Positions 6,064 to 33,563 are shown, counted from the first letter of the stretch. The stretch is DNA of 64,000 bases from Acidimicrobiia bacterium (GCA_965203555.1 CBDBCY010000004.1:192001-256000); one strand, 5' to 3'. Program-made: numbers and translations. The notes: generated by a model from the sequence alone, not told the origin.

Positions 6064-6145
6064 GCCGGGATACCCAAGCGGCCAAAGGGAGCAGACTGTA
6101 AATCTGCCGGCGATGCCTTCGGAGGTTCAAATCCTTCTCCCGGCA
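6064..6145 (+). tRNA. tRNA-Tyr(GTA)
   Basis: Acceptor GCCGGGA/TCCCGGC, anticodon arm GCAGA-CTGTAAA-TCTGC, long variable arm, GGTTCAAATCC; CCA not encoded. Confidence 0.95.
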
Positions 6146-6169
6146 CCGGCTTTCCCGCAAAGACCAAGC

Positions 6170-6243
6170 GCCCCCTTAGCTCAGACGGCCAGAGCGCCTC
6201 CATGGTAAGGAGGAGGTCTCCGGTTCGAATCCGGAAGGGGGCT
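6170..6243 (+). tRNA. tRNA-Thr(GGT)
   Basis: GCCCCCT/AGGGGGC acceptor, CCTCC-ATGGTAA-GGAGG anticodon arm, GGTTCGAATCC. Confidence 0.95.
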
Positions 6244-6275
6244 CCCCCGTGCGGCCCGCGCCGACTACGGGTAAA

Positions 6276-6349
6276 GGCGGCGTAGCTCAGTTGGTAAGAG
6301 CGCTCGACTCATAATCGAGAGGTCGGCAGTTCAAGTCTGCCCGCCGCTA
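6276..6349 (+). tRNA. tRNA-Met(CAT), elongator type
   Basis: GGCGGCG/CGCCGCT acceptor, CTCGA-CTCATAA-TCGAG anticodon arm, paired first base. Confidence 0.92.
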
Positions 6350-6400
6350 CATGGAACCAAAGACAGCTATCGATAAATACAGAAATGGGGGTGTTTGGTT

Positions 6401-7591
6401 GTGGGTAAGGTGAGGTTTGAGCGGGTGAAGCCGCATTTGAATGTGGGTACTATGGGTCATATTGATCATGGGAAGACTACGTTGACTGCTGCGATTACTA
6501 GGGTGTTGTCTGAGCGGGTTGGTGGGGTGAATGTGGTGACTGGGTTTGATGATATTGATCGTGCTCCTGAGGAGCGTGAGCGGGGTATTACGATTCAGAT
6601 TGCGCATGTTGAGTATGAGACTGTTTTGCGTCATTATGCGCATGTGGATATGCCGGGGCATGCGGATTATATTAAGAATATGATTACGGGGGCGGCTCAG
6701 GTGGATGGGGCGGTGTTGGTGGTGTCGGCGGTTGATGGTCCGATGCCGCAGACTCGTGAGCATGTGTTGTTGGCGCGGCAGGTGGGTGTGCCGCGGATTG
6801 TGGTGTTTTTGAATAAGTGTGATTTGGTGGATGATGGTGAGTTGTTGGATTTGGTGGAGTTGGAGGTTCGGGATTTGTTGACGGAGTATGAGTTTCCGGG
6901 TGATGATGTTCCGGTGGTGAGGGGTTCGGCGTTGTTGGCGTTGGAGGGTGATGTGGTGGCTGGTGATGGGGTTATGGAGTTGATGGATGCGGTTGATGGG
7001 TATGTTGATGTGCCGGTTCGGGATGTGGATCGTCCGTTTTTGATGCCGATTGAGGATGTGTTTTCGATTACTGGTCGGGGTACGGTGGTGACTGGTCGGG
7101 TTGAGCAGGGTGTGTTGCGGGTTGGTGAGGCGGTTGAGGTGGTTGGTTTGCGTGATACGCGTGGGTCGGTGGCTACTGGTGTGGAGATGTTTAGGAAGTT
7201 GTTGGATGAGGGTCGGGCTGGTGATAATGTGGGGGTGTTGTTGCGGGGGGTGGGGAAGTCGGAGGTGGAGCGTGGTCAGGTGTTGGCTGCTCCTGGGTCG
7301 ATTTTGCCGCATGTGGGTTTTGAGGCGCAGGTGTATGTGTTGACGAAGGAGGAGGGGGGGAGGCATAATCCGTTTTTTTCGGGTTATCGTCCGCAGTTTT
7401 ATTTTCGGACTACGGATGTGACGGGTTCGGTGTTGTTGCCTGTTGGGGTGCAGATGGTGATGCCGGGTGATAATGTGGAGTTGTCGGTGGAGTTGATTGC
7501 TCCGATTGCGATGTCGGTGGGGTTGGATTTCGCGATTCGTGAGGGTGGTCGGACTGTGGGGGCGGGTCGGGTCACCAAGATCACCAAATAA
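6401..7591 (+). CDS. tuf: Elongation factor Tu (extreme G+T codon bias)
   Basis: [47 protein letters not shown]; follows the tRNA cluster; start taken as GTG 6401. Confidence 0.97.
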
Positions 7592-7656
7592 CCCCCCAAA
7601 CCCAAAGACTGACGCCAATAGCGCAAGAAGCCAGGACGTAAGAAAGAAAGCAACCG

Positions 7657-7848
7657 ATGCCAAGTGACAAGAGACCCCCGGTGAAACTTGCCTGCACCGA
7701 GTGCAAGCGGCGCAACTACGTGACCACCCGCGGCAGGGCGAACCAGCACGACAAGGCGCAGCGCCGCAACCTCGTGCGAGGCCGGTTGGTGCTTCGCAAG
7801 TACTGTCGGTGGTGCCGCATTCACACTTCCCACCGGGAAACGCGATAG
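7657..7848 (+). CDS. rpmG: 50S ribosomal protein L33 (Zn-binding type)
   Basis: [11 protein letters not shown]...[18 protein letters not shown]. Confidence 0.93.
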
Positions 7849-7889
7849 GCCAGGCCAAGGCGTCTGCTTCCAAGGGGGTGGCCGGCCAG

Positions 7890-8744
7890 ATGACTCTCGC
7901 CGATCTGGAGGGCATGGTTTTCGGGCCCGAGCCCCTGCGGGTTTCCAGGGACCGCGTCGCCGCCTACGTGGAGGTAACCGGCGACCAACCCGATCGATGG
8001 GGCGATGTCGCTCCGCCCGGCATGGCCGGCGCCGCGTTGTTTGCGGTAGCTCCCACGTTGCTTTCTCATCCGGCGGTTATGGCCGAGGGCGGTGCGGCGA
8101 TTCACGGGGAGCAGGTCTTCATATGGAAGGCCCCACTTCAGGCGGAGGCAACCTGGTCGGTGGTAGGTGAGGTCAAGCGGGTGCGACATCGTCGGGGCGT
8201 CTGGTTTGTGGACTTTTCCGCAGCCGTCGCCGACTCCCATGGCGGGACAATGGTGGAGGGCAGGTCTTCTTTCCTGATCGCCGGAGGTAGCCCGCCGGCT
8301 CGGAGCGGGACGGTGGATACCGAACCGCCTCCCCATCACCGTGCCGACAACCGACCGGCGTCCGGCGCCGACCTTCCCGAGGTGGGCTGTGAGACTCCCA
8401 CGCTCTCCAAATCGGCGAGTCGTGCGGATCTGATTCGCTACGCCGCGGTCACCAGGGATTGGAATCCGATCCACTGGGATCATCAGTCGGCGGTGGGAGC
8501 GGGGCTTCCGGGCGTGGTGGTGCACGGATTGGCCTGCGCAGCCTGGATGTGCCAGGGCGTCACCCGGTTGCTGGACGGAGAGGCGCCCATTGGTAGAGCC
8601 AAGTTCCGGTTTCGGCGGCCGCTACGCCCCGCGGTGTCCGCGCAGGTGGAGGGCAGGCGGACCGGTGAAGACCGGTTCGCAATGCGTTTGGTCTCGGAAG
8701 GACACGTTCTCATCACAGCCACGATGGAGACGGCGCTCCATTAG
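7890..8744 (+). CDS. Fused double hot-dog MaoC-family dehydratase (HadA-HadB like)
   Basis: N-half IHGEQVF; C-half YAAVTRDWNPIHWD...VVHG hydratase-2 motif; position after rpmG as for actinobacterial hadAB. Confidence 0.8.
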   Translation: MTLADLEGMVFGPEPLRVSRDRVAAYVEVTGDQPDRWGDVAPPGMAGAALFAVAPTLLSHPAVMAEGGAAIHGEQVFIWKAPLQAEATWSVVGEVKRVRHRRGVWFVDFSAAVADSHGGTMVEGRSSFLIAGGSPPARSGTVDTEPPPHHRADNRPASGADLPEVGCETPTLSKSASRADLIRYAAVTRDWNPIHWDHQSAVGAGLPGVVVHGLACAAWMCQGVTRLLDGEAPIGRAKFRFRRPLRPAVSAQVEGRRTGEDRFAMRLVSEGHVLITATMETALH

Positions 8745-19949: not shown

Positions 19950-20729
19950 ATGAAACGCCTGGCAGCGATAATCCTGCTGACCGTCCTAGCGGCACCAGCC
20001 ATCCCGGCAGGAGCCCAAGGCGCCCCGCCAACCAGCGACGGACCGGAGGGCATCAATCTCGTTTGGAAATGCATGCCCAACTGGTGGTGGGAAGCCCACC
20101 AAAAAGGCCGAGACCTCGACCCGAGCGGGGAGACCTGCGATTGGGTCTACGACATGACCCACGACGCCATGCACGATCACGAAGACGATGACCACGATGA
20201 CGGTCACGACGAGGGACCCCCCGGCATGACCGACCCCTACCAAGGAGGAGTCCACGAGGGAACCAGAATCGTTTGGACTTGCATGCCAGGCCTCGACGGA
20301 ACCGGCCAGGTCTGCGCGTGGATTTATGACACCGGTCACGGCCATAGCCACGGGGAAGAAGAGCATCACGACGACCACGACGAGCCGCACCGCCCGCAGG
20401 CGTTGGCGGCGTTCTCGGCATCCTGTCAGACCGTGGGAACCGATATCCAGTGTCAACTGTCGATAACACCGACCGAGGGAGACCTGCAGCCCATCCGGTA
20501 CCGGGTTGCGATCGTTGACGGGCAGACCAAAGCCAAGGTAGCCATATTGCACCTGTCGCCCACCGACCTGAACCCGACGGTAACCCTGTCGGATGCTGAC
20601 AACAGCAACCTGATTCTGAAGGCGCGAGCCGTGGGCGATTGCAAGCGAGAAACCAAGCGCGACGCCGGAGCCGAAACCTGTAGCCGGTTCAAGGGCCCAG
20701 TCAGCAAGGCAACCGTCCGGGTAGGGTAA
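19950..20729 (+). CDS. Secreted His/Asp-rich repeat protein of unknown function
   Basis: Signal peptide MKRLAAIILLTVLAAPAIPAGA; two WxCMP...CxWxYD modules each followed by a His/acidic tract; strong RBS. Confidence 0.75.
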   Translation: MKRLAAIILLTVLAAPAIPAGAQGAPPTSDGPEGINLVWKCMPNWWWEAHQKGRDLDPSGETCDWVYDMTHDAMHDHEDDDHDDGHDEGPPGMTDPYQGGVHEGTRIVWTCMPGLDGTGQVCAWIYDTGHGHSHGEEEHHDDHDEPHRPQALAAFSASCQTVGTDIQCQLSITPTEGDLQPIRYRVAIVDGQTKAKVAILHLSPTDLNPTVTLSDADNSNLILKARAVGDCKRETKRDAGAETCSRFKGPVSKATVRVG

Positions 20730-20964
20730 TCATCCCCTAGACTTACCTGCAGGCTCCAACCTTCGGTTCTCAGTCTAGGAGCTAGACGAGGTCGAGGGCG
20801 TCCCACTGGCGGTCGGCCAGGCCTTCTTCCATCGCTGGGGTGTGCAAACTGAGCCACTACCCGGCCGAGCAGGGCAGGTATGATATTAGTGTGATTCTTA
20901 GGCTGATGTTATGACTTGTTGTGATGTGTTGCTGGCGCCGCATTTGGGTTCGTTTTGAGGTGAT

Positions 20965-23365
20965 GTGTTGGAGTTGTCTGAGGGCTTGGTGACGGAGGGT
21001 GAAGCCGGTTTGCGGGAACGGCTTTATAGGTTGAGCCGGGCGAGTCTGCGTATTAATGAGAGTCTGGATTTTGATTCGGTGCTTCAGGGTGCTTTGGATT
21101 CGGCTTGTTCGTTGACTGGCGCCCGTTATGGGGTGATGGCTATGTTGGATGGCGGGGGGCGGGTGGGGGACTTTTTGTCGTCGGGATTGAGCGGTGAGCA
21201 GGCCGAACAGCTCTGGCAGACCCCCCAGAGGTGGGAAATATTCGAGCGTTTGGGCCGCGTGTCCGTACCTTTGCGTGTTCCTGACCTGGTGGGCCATGTG
21301 AGGTCTTTGGGGTTTGACGGGTTCCGTCTGCCCTTGGCGGGCGGGTCGGTGTGGCCGTTTTTGGCGTCGCCGATGTTCCATGGTACCGAGCGGGTAGGTA
21401 ATGTCTTTTTGGCCGGGCGGGTGGACGGGGCCGAGTTCAGCGGGGAGGACGAGCAGACTCTGGTGATGTTCGCTTCTCAGGCGGCGTTGGTGATTGCTAA
21501 CGCCCGGCGGCATCTTGAAGAGCGGCGGGCCCGGGCCGCCTTGGAGACGCTGATCGATACTTCTCCGGTGGGTGTGGTGGTGTTCGATGCCGTGTCCGGA
21601 GCGCCTAAGTCTTTCAATCGGGAAGCGCGGAGGATCGCGGACAGCCTGGCGGACTCCGATCAGTCTCCTGAGATGCTCTTGGACGTGATCACCTGCAGGC
21701 GGGCCGATGGGCGGGAGGTTTCCTTGCGGGAGTTTCCGTTGGCCGAGTTGCTGAGCGCGGGGGAGACGCTGCGGGCCGAGGAGATTGTCTTGGCGGTTCC
21801 CGACGGGCGCTGTGTCACGGTGCTGTTAAACGCGACGCCGATCTTCTCCGATGCGGGCGAGGTGGAGTCGGCGGTGGTGACGCTCCAGGACATGGCCGAC
21901 GTGGAGGAGTTGGAGCGCCTACGGGCCGAGTTTTTGGCCATGGTCAGCCACGAGTTGCGGGCGCCCTTGACCTCCATCAAGGGTTCCACTGCCACGGTGC
22001 TGGATTCGCCCGTGGACCTGGACCCGGCCGTGGTCCGCCAGTTTTTCCGTATCATTTCCGAGCAGGCCGATCACATGCACGGCCTGGTGTCCGATCTCCT
22101 GGACGTAGCTCGGATCGAGACGGGCACGCTGGCGGTCGGTCCCGAACCGGCGGAGGTGGCCATGCTGGTGGAGCGGGCGAGGCGTGCTTTCACGGGTGGT
22201 GGGGGCCGGAACGACCTGGCCATCGACATCGAGCCCGGTCTTCCGCTGGTGATGGCGGACCGGCGGCGAATCCTCCAGGTGCTGGTCAACCTGCTGACCA
22301 ACGCGGCCCGCCACTCCCCGCGGCCGTCGGTCATCACGATAACCGCCACCCGCGACGGGACACATGTGGCCGTCTCGGTAGTCGACGAGGGGCGGGGCAT
22401 CCCGGCCGAGAGCCTGCCCGGTTTGTTCCGGAAGTTCTCCGCGGCGAAGTCCGAGGAACCGGGCGGGGACACCGGGCTGGGCCTGGCGATCTGCAGAGGG
22501 ATAGTAGAGGCCCACGGGGGACGCATCTGGGCCGAGAGCGACGGCCCGGACCTCGGCGCCCGTTTCACCTTCACCCTGCCCACAGTGGAACCAACCAGCG
22601 GCGCAACAGCCGGTGCTCGCCCGCCGTCATCGAGGCGCTTGTCCCGCGGGCAGCAAGAGACGGGAGAAGGGGTGCGGGTACTGGCGGTGGACGACGACCC
22701 CAGAGACCTCCGGTACGTCCAGGACACCCTCATCCAGTCGGGATACGCTCCCACGGTAACCGGGGACCCCGAGGAAGCGCTCCGTCTCATGGAAGAGGAC
22801 CGGCCCCGGCTGGTGCTGCTGGACCTCATGCTCCCCGGGACAGACGGCATCAAGCTGATGGGAGAGATCCTGAACACCGCGGACGTGCCGGTCATCTTCC
22901 TCTCCGCCTACGGCAGGGACGACCTCATCGCCGAAGCTCTCAACAAAGGCGCCTCCGACTACGTCCTCAAGCCCTTCTCGCCAACAGAGCTGACAGCAAG
23001 AATCGGAGCGGCCCTCCGCCGCAGCGCCCGTCCCCGAGCCCCTGGAGCCATACCAACTGGGCGACCTGACCATCAACTACCCCGAACGCAGAGTGACCCT
23101 AGCCGACCGGCCCGTGCACCTCCTCCCAATGGAATACCGAATGCTCACCGCGCTCTCGACCAGCGCCGGACGGGTACTCACCTACAAACAACTGCTAAAC
23201 CGAGTGTGGGAGGACAAAGAAAGCCGCGACCTGCGACCCATGCGCACCATTGTCCGCAAACTCCGACAAAAACTAAACGACGACGCCCGCAACCCCACCT
23301 ACATCTTCACCGAACCCCGCGTCGGCTACCGAATGCCAAAAGGAGAGAAAAGAAAAACGCACTGA
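20965..23365 (+). CDS. Cytoplasmic hybrid regulator GAF-PAS-HisKA-HATPase-REC-winged helix (frameshift near 23028)
   Basis: SHELRAPLT, NLLTNAARH, DEGRGI, GTGLGL-like box, LLDLMLP/KPF receiver; OmpR-type C-domain (YIFTEPRVGY) continues in the +1 frame after one extra C at 23027-23029. Confidence 0.85.
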
Positions 23366-31013: not shown

Positions 31014-31890
31014 AGGCTTTCTGGTGATCGACAAGCCCTCGGGCGTCACCTCCCATGACATGGTGGCGGCGGTTCGCAAGGCCGTGGGGATCCGCCGGGT
31101 GGGCCACGCCGGGACGCTGGATCCCATGGCCACCGGCGCCCTGGTGGTGGCGGTGGGCAGAGTCACCAGACTGATCCGCTTCATCCAACCGCTTGCCAAG
31201 GAATATGTTGCACTGGCCCGGTTCGGGGTGGCGACCGACACCTTGGACGCCGACGGCCGGAAGACCTGGGCCGAAGAGATGCCGGTGCGGCGCAGCGAGG
31301 TGGAGTCGGCGCTTTCTTCCTTCGTGGGACAGATTGAGCAGGTACCTCCGATGGTGTCGGCGATCAAAGTGGAGGGGCGGCGTCTGTACGAGTTGGCGCG
31401 TCAGGGTGTGCAGGTGGAGAGGGCGGCCCGGAGAGTGACCGTCCATTCCCTGCAACTCACCAGCTTCAGACCGGGACCCCACCCCCTGGTGGGGTTGCGG
31501 GTGGTTTGCGGAAAGGGTGTCTATGTGCGCAGTCTGGCCGACGACATCGCCCGGACCCTGGGAGGGCGCGCCCACCTCACCGCCTTGCGACGGATCAGGG
31601 TGGGGAGCCTGGCAGTGGGGGAGGACCCGGCCGGCGGTCGGGGACCCGCAGACCTTGCGGAATGGAAGAGGTGGATCCTTTCACCTTCCGAGGGCCTGCG
31701 CGATCTGGCGGGCTGGACGGTCTCCGACCCGGCGCTGGAAATGGTCAAAAACGGAAGGCGCCTGCCCGCGCATCAACGGTCCGATCCGGACGAAGACCAG
31801 CCGGTCCGCGTTCTGGATGCTGAAGGCAGGTTATGGGCCGTCTATCGCCGCCGAGGGTCGCTAATGATTCCAGAAGTAGTTCTCAACTAG
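31006..31890 (+). CDS. truB: tRNA pseudouridine(55) synthase
   Basis: DKPSGVTSHD, VGHAGTLDPMATG, QVPPMVSAIK, GVYVRSL; TTG start at 31006 with GGAGA RBS. Confidence 0.95.
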   Translation: MPEGFLVIDKPSGVTSHDMVAAVRKAVGIRRVGHAGTLDPMATGALVVAVGRVTRLIRFIQPLAKEYVALARFGVATDTLDADGRKTWAEEMPVRRSEVESALSSFVGQIEQVPPMVSAIKVEGRRLYELARQGVQVERAARRVTVHSLQLTSFRPGPHPLVGLRVVCGKGVYVRSLADDIARTLGGRAHLTALRRIRVGSLAVGEDPAGGRGPADLAEWKRWILSPSEGLRDLAGWTVSDPALEMVKNGRRLPAHQRSDPDEDQPVRVLDAEGRLWAVYRRRGSLMIPEVVLN

Positions 31891-31892
31891 GG

Positions 31893-32312
31893 CCGGGCTT
31901 TCCCACTGATCGTGGAGGGTTGGTTGGTGGGTTTTGGTAGTTGATGGGGCTGGTCATGTCGAGGTGGAGTGGAGTCGGTGGTGGTTGCAGCAGGTGTGGA
32001 TCCAGTTGGCGATGTCCTGTCGGGCCTGGGTTCTGGTGACGTACCGGCGGTCGACGAGGCGTTCTGTCTGCAGGGGTGGAGAAAACGACTCGGCCGCGGG
32101 GCTGTCCAACGCTGAGCCTGCTCTTCCCATGGACTGGACGATCCCCAGCCGGGTGCAGGCCTTGACGAAGGCGTGGCGGTGTGTTGTCTGCCGCGGTCGG
32201 TGTGGAAGATCACTTTCCGTACGGTGCCGCCGCGGGTGCCCACGGCCATGTTGATAGCGGCCTGGGCCAACTCGGCGGTGGGATAGTTGTCGCTTGGATC
32301 GAATCCCAGCAT
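31893..32312 (-). mobile_element. IS3-family transposase (OrfB) C-terminal remnant, frameshifted
   Basis: VIFHTDRG then shifted QSMGRAGSALDSPAAESF...NHHRLHS integrase-core motifs. Confidence 0.8.
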
Positions 32313-32339
32313 GCACCGGATACGGGGGAACTCTAAACT

Positions 32340-33563
32340 CTATTGTCTTTGTTTTATGGGCTGTCGGCGTTTGCGGGTGGGTGGGCGGCGGTAGCGGTTG
32401 GGGGTACGGCGGGGTGGGTTCCAGTCGGTGGTTGGTGGGCGGCGGAGGGTGTACGTTCCGGTGGGAGTTCTGTGTACTGTCCAATCCTGGTCGTGTACTT
32501 TGTGGTGGCATCTGCTGCACAGAAGACACATGTTGTCCAGGTTGGTGGGGCCCCGATCTTGCCAGTGGACGATGTGGTGGGCCTGGCACCAGGAGGCTTT
32601 GGCGCCGCAACCGATGCAGTGTTTGTCGCGGGCGACGAGGGCGGCCCGTTGGGAACCGCTGGCTGTCCGTCGGGCTCGTCCCAAATCCAGCGGCACCGAC
32701 GAACCTGAGAATATGGCGGGGAGTATCTGAGCGTCGCAGGCCAACTGGCGCAGGGTACGGGCAGGCAGGGGGGTTCCGTTCTCGAGGCGAGGGTTGCCCA
32801 ACTGTTTGCTGATCGTGTCGTAGTCGGCGATCAACAACAGCCTCACGCCCTGGGAACCGCCATCTTCTCCTTCCCGAGTGAGGAGCTTGGCTATGGCGTC
32901 GGCCATCCGCTGACCCGCAGTAGCCCGATCGGTGGGGTCTTCTTGGTGCCATAGTTGTTTCATCATGTGAGACACCGCCGTCTCGACCCGGGCACCGGTG
33001 ACCGGGTCGAAACGCCCATACAACACGGTCATCCCGTCGTCTTGGCCGGTGGTGATCTTCGCGAACCGCCGGGACCGCTGATGCTCCAACCTCGACACAC
33101 CATCATCCTCTGAACGCTTCTGTTCGTGTTTGCGTACCATGACCGCGAACTTGTCAGGAGACTGGGAACGGGCACCGTCCAACAACTCGTCCTCGACGAT
33201 GGTTCCCCTCTGGTTAGCGCCCGCCAAAATACGCACGTTGTCAGCAGAGATCTCTCCCTTTTGGAAACCCTCCCTCGTTTTGGGCAGTTCCTCCAACCCC
33301 CGGGCGGTCTCCACCTCAGACCGGGCCTTCCGACGGCCCAACAGCCCGTCCTCCCGCAAAATCGTCTCCACCTGCTCTGTTCCCTGGCGGCGGCGCAACT
33401 CCGACACCGCCTGGGCGCGGACCGCCGCCACCTGGTTCTGGACGCGGATGGTGGACTGTATACGCTGTTTCAGCTCTTCAACCGACGCCTCAACGACCGG
33501 GATGGTGGGTGACAGGAGCTTGGCCAGGTTGACGGACCGCCGACTGTCGACTGCTTGTTTCAT
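32340..33563 (-). CDS. DUF222 + HNH endonuclease (13E12-repeat-like element protein)
   Basis: RQLACDA, LDLGR..R, RDKHC..C, CQAHHIVHWQDRGPTNLDNMCLLCSRCHHKVH; likely leaderless ATG 33563. Confidence 0.88.
   Translation of the reverse strand: MKQAVDSRRSVNLAKLLSPTIPVVEASVEELKQRIQSTIRVQNQVAAVRAQAVSELRRRQGTEQVETILREDGLLGRRKARSEVETARGLEELPKTREGFQKGEISADNVRILAGANQRGTIVEDELLDGARSQSPDKFAVMVRKHEQKRSEDDGVSRLEHQRSRRFAKITTGQDDGMTVLYGRFDPVTGARVETAVSHMMKQLWHQEDPTDRATAGQRMADAIAKLLTREGEDGGSQGVRLLLIADYDTISKQLGNPRLENGTPLPARTLRQLACDAQILPAIFSGSSVPLDLGRARRTASGSQRAALVARDKHCIGCGAKASWCQAHHIVHWQDRGPTNLDNMCLLCSRCHHKVHDQDWTVHRTPTGTYTLRRPPTTDWNPPRRTPNRYRRPPTRKRRQPIKQRQ

Follow-up and report, generated by a model that had tools for sequence, protein, structure and literature searches.

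The elongation factor Tu gene (tuf) described here carries almost no A or C at its third codon positions: counted from the GTG at position 6401, 390 of its 396 codons end in G or T, and within the keto-rich domain this holds for 389 of the first 390. The gene is located in a stretch of 64,000 nucleotides (the window; G000:C4:192001-256000) from an Acidimicrobiia genome of 3.4 Mb in four contigs, and the public runs containing this stretch bear mostly sponge and coral metagenome labels. To our knowledge, a natural essential gene with such a codon complement is among the most extreme gene-specific biases known. We document below the bias itself, its limits along the locus, the substitutions behind it, how long it has lasted and its co-occurrence with near-identical tuf pairs and the repair enzyme NucS. 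The best reading of the data, to which we assign a probability of about 0.6, is a strand-asymmetric, NucS-linked biased gene conversion between the two tuf copies of the genome.

Extent and limits of the keto bias in tuf

Three plus-strand tRNA genes called by ARAGORN, tRNA-Tyr(GTA) at 6064-6147, tRNA-Thr(GGT) at 6170-6245 and tRNA-Met(CAT) at 6276-6350, lie 5' of the window tuf in a tufB-like context, and their composition appeared ordinary in a 30-nt keto profile. The gene itself, 396 codons plus stop, was delimited at 6401..7591 (+) by Pfam and by alignment with relatives. A preliminary description of this DNA had recognised an EF-Tu gene with an intact frame, which is borne out by the three Pfam domains of EF-Tu, found in order and at full length in the 396-residue product (PF00009, 204.6 bits; PF03144, 64.8 bits; PF03143, 120.6 bits); NKCD, common to the class consensus, is legible in the translation. 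Judging from the alignment with relatives, translation most likely starts at the GTG at 6401 and not at the TTG at 6395, which was the choice of the ORF caller. A Shine-Dalgarno-like GGGGG run (6387..6391, +) is situated 9 nt 5' of this GTG. When the 5' ends of about 40 loci were aligned, ordinary relatives showed GGAGG-type sites at that place, hence even the A of the Shine-Dalgarno site has been swapped for G.

According to the 30-nt keto profile and codon counts, the G+T-rich domain extends over 6387..7570 (+). Its only codon ending otherwise is codon 377 (TTC). The counts given in the preliminary description are exact, with 48 of 60 nucleotides being G or T and four being C in both 6841-6900 and 6961-7020, and 46 of 60 being A or C in 7571-7630, and the abrupt switch that it placed at about 7571 is confirmed: by codon counts, the stretch 7571..7591 (+), with the final six sense codons and the stop, is of the ordinary C- and A-ending kind, codons 391, 392, 394, 395 and 396 reading GTC, ACC, ATC, ACC and AAA. 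Only 0.18% of the 60-nt windows of the genome are as A+C-rich as 7571-7630. Within tuf, leucine is encoded by TTG in 34 of 34 cases, compared with a TTG share of 17% genome-wide; T ends 67 of the 68 two-fold NNY codons and G ends 47 of the 48 two-fold NNR codons. Third positions are composed of A 0.003, C 0.013, G 0.578 and T 0.407, T having risen from about 0.05 to 0.41, and the G+C content of the gene (0.54) is below that of the genome (0.62).

This composition is a property of tuf and not of its surroundings. The combined share of G and T at third positions (G3+T3) reaches 0.98 in tuf as against a mean of 0.494 (sd 0.061) over the 2949 longest ORFs, and the runner-up gene attains only 0.79, so that the genome-wide third-position skew proposed as a check singles out tuf. 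The groEL and rplL genes of the window, whose codon usage had been described as ordinary, indeed show values of 0.42 and 0.44. Ribosomal protein genes remain at about 0.5, and fusA, which sits 12 nt 5' of a second tuf in the str operon, at 0.50. Translational codon bias was considered as a cause and discarded, given that the NNY boxes take T and the ribosomal protein genes stay at about 0.5. The tRNA pool was likewise rejected, the tRNA set being ordinary: 47 genes, each anticodon represented once, a single GNN tRNA per NNY box and one extra tRNA-His(ATG). This second tRNA-His is an ARAGORN call at G000:C4:628250-628327 (-), beside the usual one with anticodon GTG; a tRNA-His with A34 would be unusual, and we regard it as a candidate tRNA only.

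The second tuf copy, in the order fusA-tuf-rpsJ, is letter-identical to the window copy, the match beginning 14 nt before the TTG at 6395 and ending 4 nt past the stop. Position by position, the identity block (6381..7595, +; partner G000:C4:162243-163457) contains 0 differences and its flanks are unrelated, while a self-blast of the block against the genome gave 99.8% with a single gap at the edge. This block is the stretch homogenised by gene conversion. The keto bias begins about 6 nt inside it and ends about 20 nt before the stop. These limits inside the identity block, with the bias ending where conversion weakens, support the conversion reading.

The possibility that the sequence is an artefact or a foreign gene, through misassembly, a chimera or a donor-derived tuf, has nothing in its favour beyond the oddity itself, and we consider its probability negligible. 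Contigs from two independent DNA runs (X3 and X4) cover most of 6381-7595 with 0 differences and short gaps (in X3, 7339-7380), and they break exactly at the borders of the identity block, beginning at 6381 and ending at 7595. RNA-library contigs (X14) match parts of tuf, also with 0 differences, and a fourth run, again RNA, contains a relative. All four runs were compared as contigs, which carry neither depth nor transcript ends, and a gap at 7617-7919 in the RNA contigs was given no weight. Assembly error is thus excluded as the source of the tuf sequence, and the doubt about read support raised in the preliminary description falls away. The distant donor that it had envisaged is not indicated either: the EF-Tu protein clusters with members of its own order (78-82% identity), and the bias is particular to this gene. 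Furthermore, both tuf loci occupy their expected conserved contexts, and the bias recurs in other genomes of the genus and, in graded form, in related families.

Two features at the 3' side of the locus deserve mention. An A+C-rich spacer (7592..7656, + strand, by composition) separates tuf from rpmG, which encodes ribosomal protein L33 (7657..7848, +; PF00471) and has an ordinary composition. In the 40 nt past the tuf stop of 23 genus loci, A+C averaged 0.73 (range 0.62-0.90) against a genome mean of 0.51 (sd 0.10); it is composition and not sequence that is common to both loci across the genus, and no terminator-like site was found in the spacer in a search for an intrinsic terminator 3' of tuf. 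The conversion model does not account for this spacer. The idea that the A+C-rich tail pairs specifically with the start of the message was tried and rejected: the predicted duplexes reach -20 to -38 kcal/mol, but of 57 mRNA windows the one at the 5' end came only 7th to 51st over 21 loci, which indicates that the tail pairs generically with the G+U-rich body. In addition, the ORF listing contains a stop-free antisense frame of 522 codons (6347..7915, -). Like other shadow ORFs that arise from codon bias, this frame results from the recoding, which leaves a template strand rich in A and C, and is no gene; the antisense frame is likewise open in the biased tuf genes of other genomes.

Distribution of the bias with copy state and NucS

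Within the genus, the 22 further tuf copies of 11 other genomes show G3+T3 values of 0.97-0.99, and the copies of each genome differ at 0-6 positions. Between species of the genus, tuf diverges by 4.6% at the amino-acid level and by 10.3% at synonymous third positions, and in the 3' part of fusA from the same genomes 34.5% of synonymous third positions differ. The fusA divergence implies that the keto rule has held through a long period of separation. Thirteen of the 19 differences between copies of the same genome fall at nt 1176-1196, and conversion is therefore weakest there.

We searched 121 Acidimicrobiia, found tuf in 88 of them at E 1e-120 or better, and fetched 91 tuf genes from 65 genomes, setting their orientation by tblastn. 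All 21 genomes with a tuf pair at least 98% identical are biased, with G3+T3 between 0.64 and 0.93, whereas the five with diverged pairs (84.7-89.9% identical) lie at 0.40-0.51 and the 11 with one copy in an assembly of at most 10 contigs at 0.39-0.52. These copy-state contrasts were found inside families f1, f18 and f19. Another 28 genomes, with one tuf found in an assembly of more than 10 contigs, were excluded from the counts, their copy number being uncertain; 11 of them reach a G3+T3 of at least 0.61, and when five were searched again with DNA, tuf fragments appeared at contig ends in three (G086, G135 and G059) and none in two (G106 and G093). Among order-level relatives, G019, G022, G026 and G030 reach 0.86, 0.95, 0.87 and 0.90.

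Two observations count against conversion. Among the order-level relatives G024 is the weakest: its copies differ at 7 positions, and its value is only 0.57. In a further 25 two-copy lineages the bias spares the last 12-14 codons, with values there mostly of 0.04-0.48 against a body mean of 0.83, and yet these codons are mostly still identical between the copies.

Outside the class, 251 Actinomycetota were searched and 34 two-copy and 12 single-copy genomes were fetched. Many identical pairs turned out to be ordinary, which at first spoke against conversion as the only factor; the addition of NucS would resolve this. A NucS match (PF01939) is present in 82 of the 251 genomes. Outside Acidimicrobiia, six of the seven genomes combining a near-identical pair with NucS are biased (0.79, 0.72, 0.72, 0.69, 0.68 and 0.68), in contrast to one of the 23 with a near-identical pair and no NucS match, the other 22 being ordinary (0.36-0.51), with pairs 98.8-100% identical; this contrast is suggestive, but it comes from related lineages and has an exception on either side. 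Less identical pairs in NucS-bearing genomes gave intermediate values, namely 0.66/0.63 in G366 (92.7% identity) and 0.58/0.56 in G236 (96.6%). Where NucS occurs with a single tuf copy the composition is ordinary: five such genomes from outside the class gave 0.42-0.48, and four Acidimicrobiia gave 0.39-0.46. All 21 biased and all five diverged pairs of Acidimicrobiia belong to NucS-bearing genomes. The link between the bias and a second tuf copy, tentatively raised in the preliminary description, is consequently strengthened both by the identical str-operon copy and by the way in which the bias tracks near-identical pairs across Actinomycetota.

Of the two exceptions, G205 has NucS and a 99.3% identical pair and nevertheless a value of 0.42; its six genus-mates have one tuf each, and its pair may be a young duplication, which we take as an assumption. 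The other, G154, shows no NucS match, has MutS, and carries a near-identical pair at 0.65. In the genome under study, NucS was found at C4:1017027-1017377 (PF01939, 119.4 bits), and no match to MutS_V (PF00488) was detected in this 95% complete assembly. MutS_V occurs in just 31 of the 251 Actinomycetota, mostly in family f51; MutS as a complement of NucS was rejected, as many NucS-less genomes show no MutS either. Overall, the bias is seen almost only where a near-identical tuf pair coincides with NucS, in lineages (Acidimicrobiia and families f47 and f79) that represent few independent origins.

This distribution bears on a possible selection at the level of the message, by which a G+U-rich mRNA poor in A and C would be favoured for an abundant protein, for instance because it folds less strongly, resists ribonucleases that depend on C or A, escapes Rho loading or costs less in nucleotides, with conversion only spreading the changes. 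EF-Tu and substrate-binding proteins are typically very abundant, the bias affects the coding strand in all five biased genes, tuf is present in RNA-library contigs, and its mRNA folds with a predicted -24.3 kcal/mol per 100 nt, the mean for the genome being -34.4 (sd 3.7). However, at least 1 of the 100 sampled genes folds more weakly still, and an unstructured mRNA was discarded as the purpose of the recoding, its folding being weaker but not extreme. EF-Tu should be just as abundant in the 11 reliably single-copy and five diverged-pair Acidimicrobiia, which show no bias, nor do 22 of the 23 near-identical pairs without a NucS match. The unbiased groEL, rplL, fusA and ribosomal protein genes, the exemption of the last 6-14 codons, the unique N-terminal parts of the doubled binding-protein genes discussed below, which are also unbiased, and the ordinary tRNA set all argue in the same direction, and we consider selection on the message unlikely.

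A reversed causality, in which G+T-rich DNA is favoured in RecA pairing and such tuf genes convert more and stay identical, appears highly improbable. RecA does prefer GT-rich DNA for pairing, and the bias is associated with near-identical pairs. Nevertheless, the 22 unbiased pairs with 98.8-100% identity indicate that identity needs no G+T richness, RecA is universal and the bias tracks NucS, and the origin of the G+T richness would itself be left without an account.

Substitution spectrum and proposed mechanism

To polarise substitutions, we used the sites with agreement in at least 80% of 11 ordinary Acidimicrobiia tuf genes. At third positions we counted 77 C>T, 23 C>G, 4 G>T and 1 G>A changes. 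At first and second positions there were 25 C>T (19+6), 15 A>G (8+7), 11 A>T (6+5) and 1 C>G (1+0) changes, with only single G>C, G>A and T>C changes in reverse, which amounts to 52 amino-to-keto changes against 3 in the opposite direction; without an unpublished outgroup the totals were 59 against 3 and 112 against 1. Transversions are directional too, with C>G 24 against G>C 1 and A>T 11 against T>A 0, and A>C and C>A occur about equally often (5 and 4). Among the synonymous third-position differences in 55 pairs of 11 genus copies, G<->T exchanges account for 1952 of 2141 in tuf as against 795 of 8124 in fusA. The polarised counts thus point to four driven classes (C>T, A>G, C>G and A>T) and two neutral ones (G<->T and A<->C). 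In the protein, 21 consensus residues are replaced, for the most part by Val, Arg or Leu (four K>R; two each of I>V, T>V and E>V), and the drift toward Val, Gly and Arg noticed earlier is reflected in the 52 against 3 changes. Together with the exclusive use of TTG for leucine, these protein changes indicate that the pressure acts at the nucleotide level.

The preliminary description had attributed the bias to strand-specific C>T and A>G mutation. In such a scenario the transcribed non-template strand would be exposed, its C and A would be damaged to yield C>T, A>G and some transversions via abasic sites, and conversion would merely keep the copies alike. The two classes named are indeed the largest (C>T 19+6+77; A>G 8+7) and the keto-rich strand is the non-template one. 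Enrichment of G+T in DNA exposed as single strand is found in vertebrate mitochondrial heavy strands, which resemble tuf in having one strand enriched in G and T; the mitochondrial case is ascribed to deamination during single-stranded exposure, involves transitions only, extends over the whole genome and is far less complete. That part of the claim which concerns the direction of C>T and A>G stands, but C>G (24, against 1 in reverse) and A>T (11, against 0) are directional as well, and mutation pressure as the cause is only partly supported, the bias being missing in lineages with a single tuf and in fusA, only 12 nt upstream, although fusA and tuf of the str operon are normally co-transcribed. 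Transcription also covers the 5' leader, the last six codons and the 3' spacer, none of which is keto-rich, and there would be no obvious reason for a dependence on NucS. A strand-specific mutational origin is accordingly improbable, and transcription-associated strand asymmetry in general was rejected on the values of fusA (0.50), groEL (0.42) and rplL (0.44) and on the C>G and A>T counts.

NucS-linked conversion would produce the four driven and two neutral classes in the following way. Gene conversion would keep the two tuf copies identical, and would do so with a direction. A strand from one copy would pair with the other, and each differing site would give either a keto-keto mismatch (G-T, G-G or T-T) or an amino-amino one (A-C, C-C or A-A). 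If NucS/EndoMS removes the incoming base at keto-keto mismatches only, and if the transferred strand is mostly of lagging-strand polarity, as in mycobacterial oligonucleotide recombination, then amino bases (A or C) that arrive opposite a resident amino base would survive and establish G or T on the leading strand, and keto bases (G or T) that arrive opposite a resident keto base would be erased, with the loss of A/C alleles from the leading strand. Over time, each A or C whose loss protein selection tolerates would be replaced on the leading, coding strand. If discrimination were nearly complete, a mutation from keto to amino arising in one copy would never take over the pair, which would explain the 389 of 390 codons. 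For the exempt 3' codons we can only speculate, under a further assumption, that the 5' end of the incoming strand might be removed.

The split into driven and neutral classes matches the substrate split of NucS. As stated in the available text of PMC8228993, NucS prefers G-T, G-G and T-T, cuts A-C weakly or not at all, and has a pocket that binds G or T better than A or C. In Mycobacterium smegmatis, according to the accessible parts of PMC11551744, oligonucleotides giving C-C, A-A, G-A, C-A, A-C and A-G mismatches are kept as mutations, while G-T and G-G mismatches lead to rejection over a patch of 5-6 bp. The likeness to oligonucleotide rejection thus comprises the removal of keto-keto mismatches with retention of amino-amino and mixed purine-purine ones, a short-patch and hence site-by-site action, and an incoming strand that pairs with the lagging-strand template; the match in specificity rests on the mismatch classes in the available portions of both articles, T-C excepted (PMC8228993, PMC11551744). 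In the genome under study, dnaA and the GC-skew minimum are located at 1.995 Mb, and the maximum is found at 0.411 Mb. Both tuf copies accordingly have the leading strand as their coding strand, with the sign that the model requires; each biased gene is, however, co-oriented with replication and plausibly highly expressed, which confounds replication, transcription and selection on the mRNA. We infer the involvement of NucS and the identity of the transferred strand from comparative data.

The proposed process shares traits with several known systems. GC-biased gene conversion is known in eukaryotes and has reportedly been proposed for bacteria, by Lassalle et al. in 2015. As in that process, a bias in heteroduplex repair would mimic selection and shift composition, slightly harmful protein changes included. 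Unlike GC-biased conversion, the axis here is keto versus amino and strand-specific, T3 being 0.41, C3 0.01 and the G+C of tuf below that of the genome, and the proposed agent is NucS instead of MutS-type or base-excision repair. GC-biased conversion itself was rejected as an explanation, the shift in G+C on both strands that characterises it being absent from tuf.

Concerted evolution of tufA and tufB by gene conversion has been described for 29 orders in 6 phyla, including Actinobacteria, in the available text of PMC6053082. The pair studied here agrees with it in its two contexts (the str operon and tRNA-tuf), in being identical within a genome and diverged between species, and in the confinement of identity to the coding block. 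It differs in the almost complete loss of A and C from the free sites of one strand and in the directional change of the protein, no compositional consequence being reported in the accessible part of that article (PMC6053082). As far as their available text goes, the NucS articles deal with replication errors and synthetic oligonucleotides and describe no long-term effect on paralogue composition (PMC8228993, PMC11551744). The nearest precedent is a 2026 preprint on M. tuberculosis, the accessible text of which reports an enrichment of T>C in paralogous regions, ascribes it to reduced NucS action and suggests that repair asymmetries could reshape the composition of such regions (PMC13061034). 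In the literature searched, of which some sources were available in part, there was no description of a keto-recoded tuf or of NucS-biased conversion.

Doubled binding-protein genes and other repeats

Six lipoprotein substrate-binding genes of the same genome are doubled in tandem and in frame. Five of them are on contig C4 (G000:C4), at 2036360-2038603 (+), 1196610-1198787 (-), 2313922-2315982 (+), 2276660-2278771 (-) and 757862-760447 (-), and the sixth is at G000:C1:24784-26835 (-). Each doubling comprises the whole mature domain, of about 0.9-1 kb, with repeats that are 100, 98.6, 96, 100, 90 and 89% identical. Three of the six show a keto bias (0.73-0.76) confined to the repeated parts, their unique N-terminal parts being unbiased; in these three the repeats are 96-100% identical and the genes are co-oriented with replication, and they speak for the conversion reading. 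One doubled gene on the lagging strand, with 100% identical repeats, is unbiased (0.46), which counts against the conversion reading. A keto skew of all intragenomic repeats was tried and rejected, as most of 108 repeat regions lie near 0.50, including IS copies and a 17-kb repeat.

We give even odds to the broader proposition that NucS repair constitutes an undescribed, strand-specific and keto-directed conversion force on any converting paralogues in NucS-bearing Actinomycetota, and perhaps in archaea that carry NucS, which would rewrite 99% of free sites in an essential gene and move the protein toward Val, Gly, Arg and Leu against purifying selection. If this were true, the substrate preference of a repair enzyme would act like very strong selection on duplicated genes, in which codon usage and even amino-acid replacements could not be read as adaptation. 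EF-Tu, a standard phylogenetic marker, would carry convergent non-adaptive changes in these lineages. The strand choice and mismatch specificity of NucS in vivo, studied so far with oligonucleotides, would have a natural, genome-encoded read-out that could be mined across thousands of genomes, and a new kind of biased gene conversion would be at hand.

Several minor observations were made in the course of the analysis. Copies of a transposase-like gene (N-terminus MLGVERFDREL...), among them those at G000:C4:2688414-2689001, 1178915-1179793 and 1155282-1156334 (all +), have a keto-biased coding strand (0.65-0.79) and a TTG share of leucine codons of 0.58-0.71, in either replichore. In the window, positions 20701-21700 and 31801-32600 (G000:C4:212701-213700 and 223801-224600) display a plus-strand keto excess of 0.31-0.38 in 600-nt windows, and the second of these stretches overlaps a multi-copy repeat at C4:224005-225644. 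A genus genome contains an extra tuf (L132; G001:C36:1-2693), 82% identical to that of the window and cut at the contig end, which may represent contamination or a foreign copy. Finally, the second tuf of G368 (C1:2864014-2865090), a member of the MutS-bearing family f51, contains two in-frame stops, one TGA and one TAA, and is probably a pseudogene.
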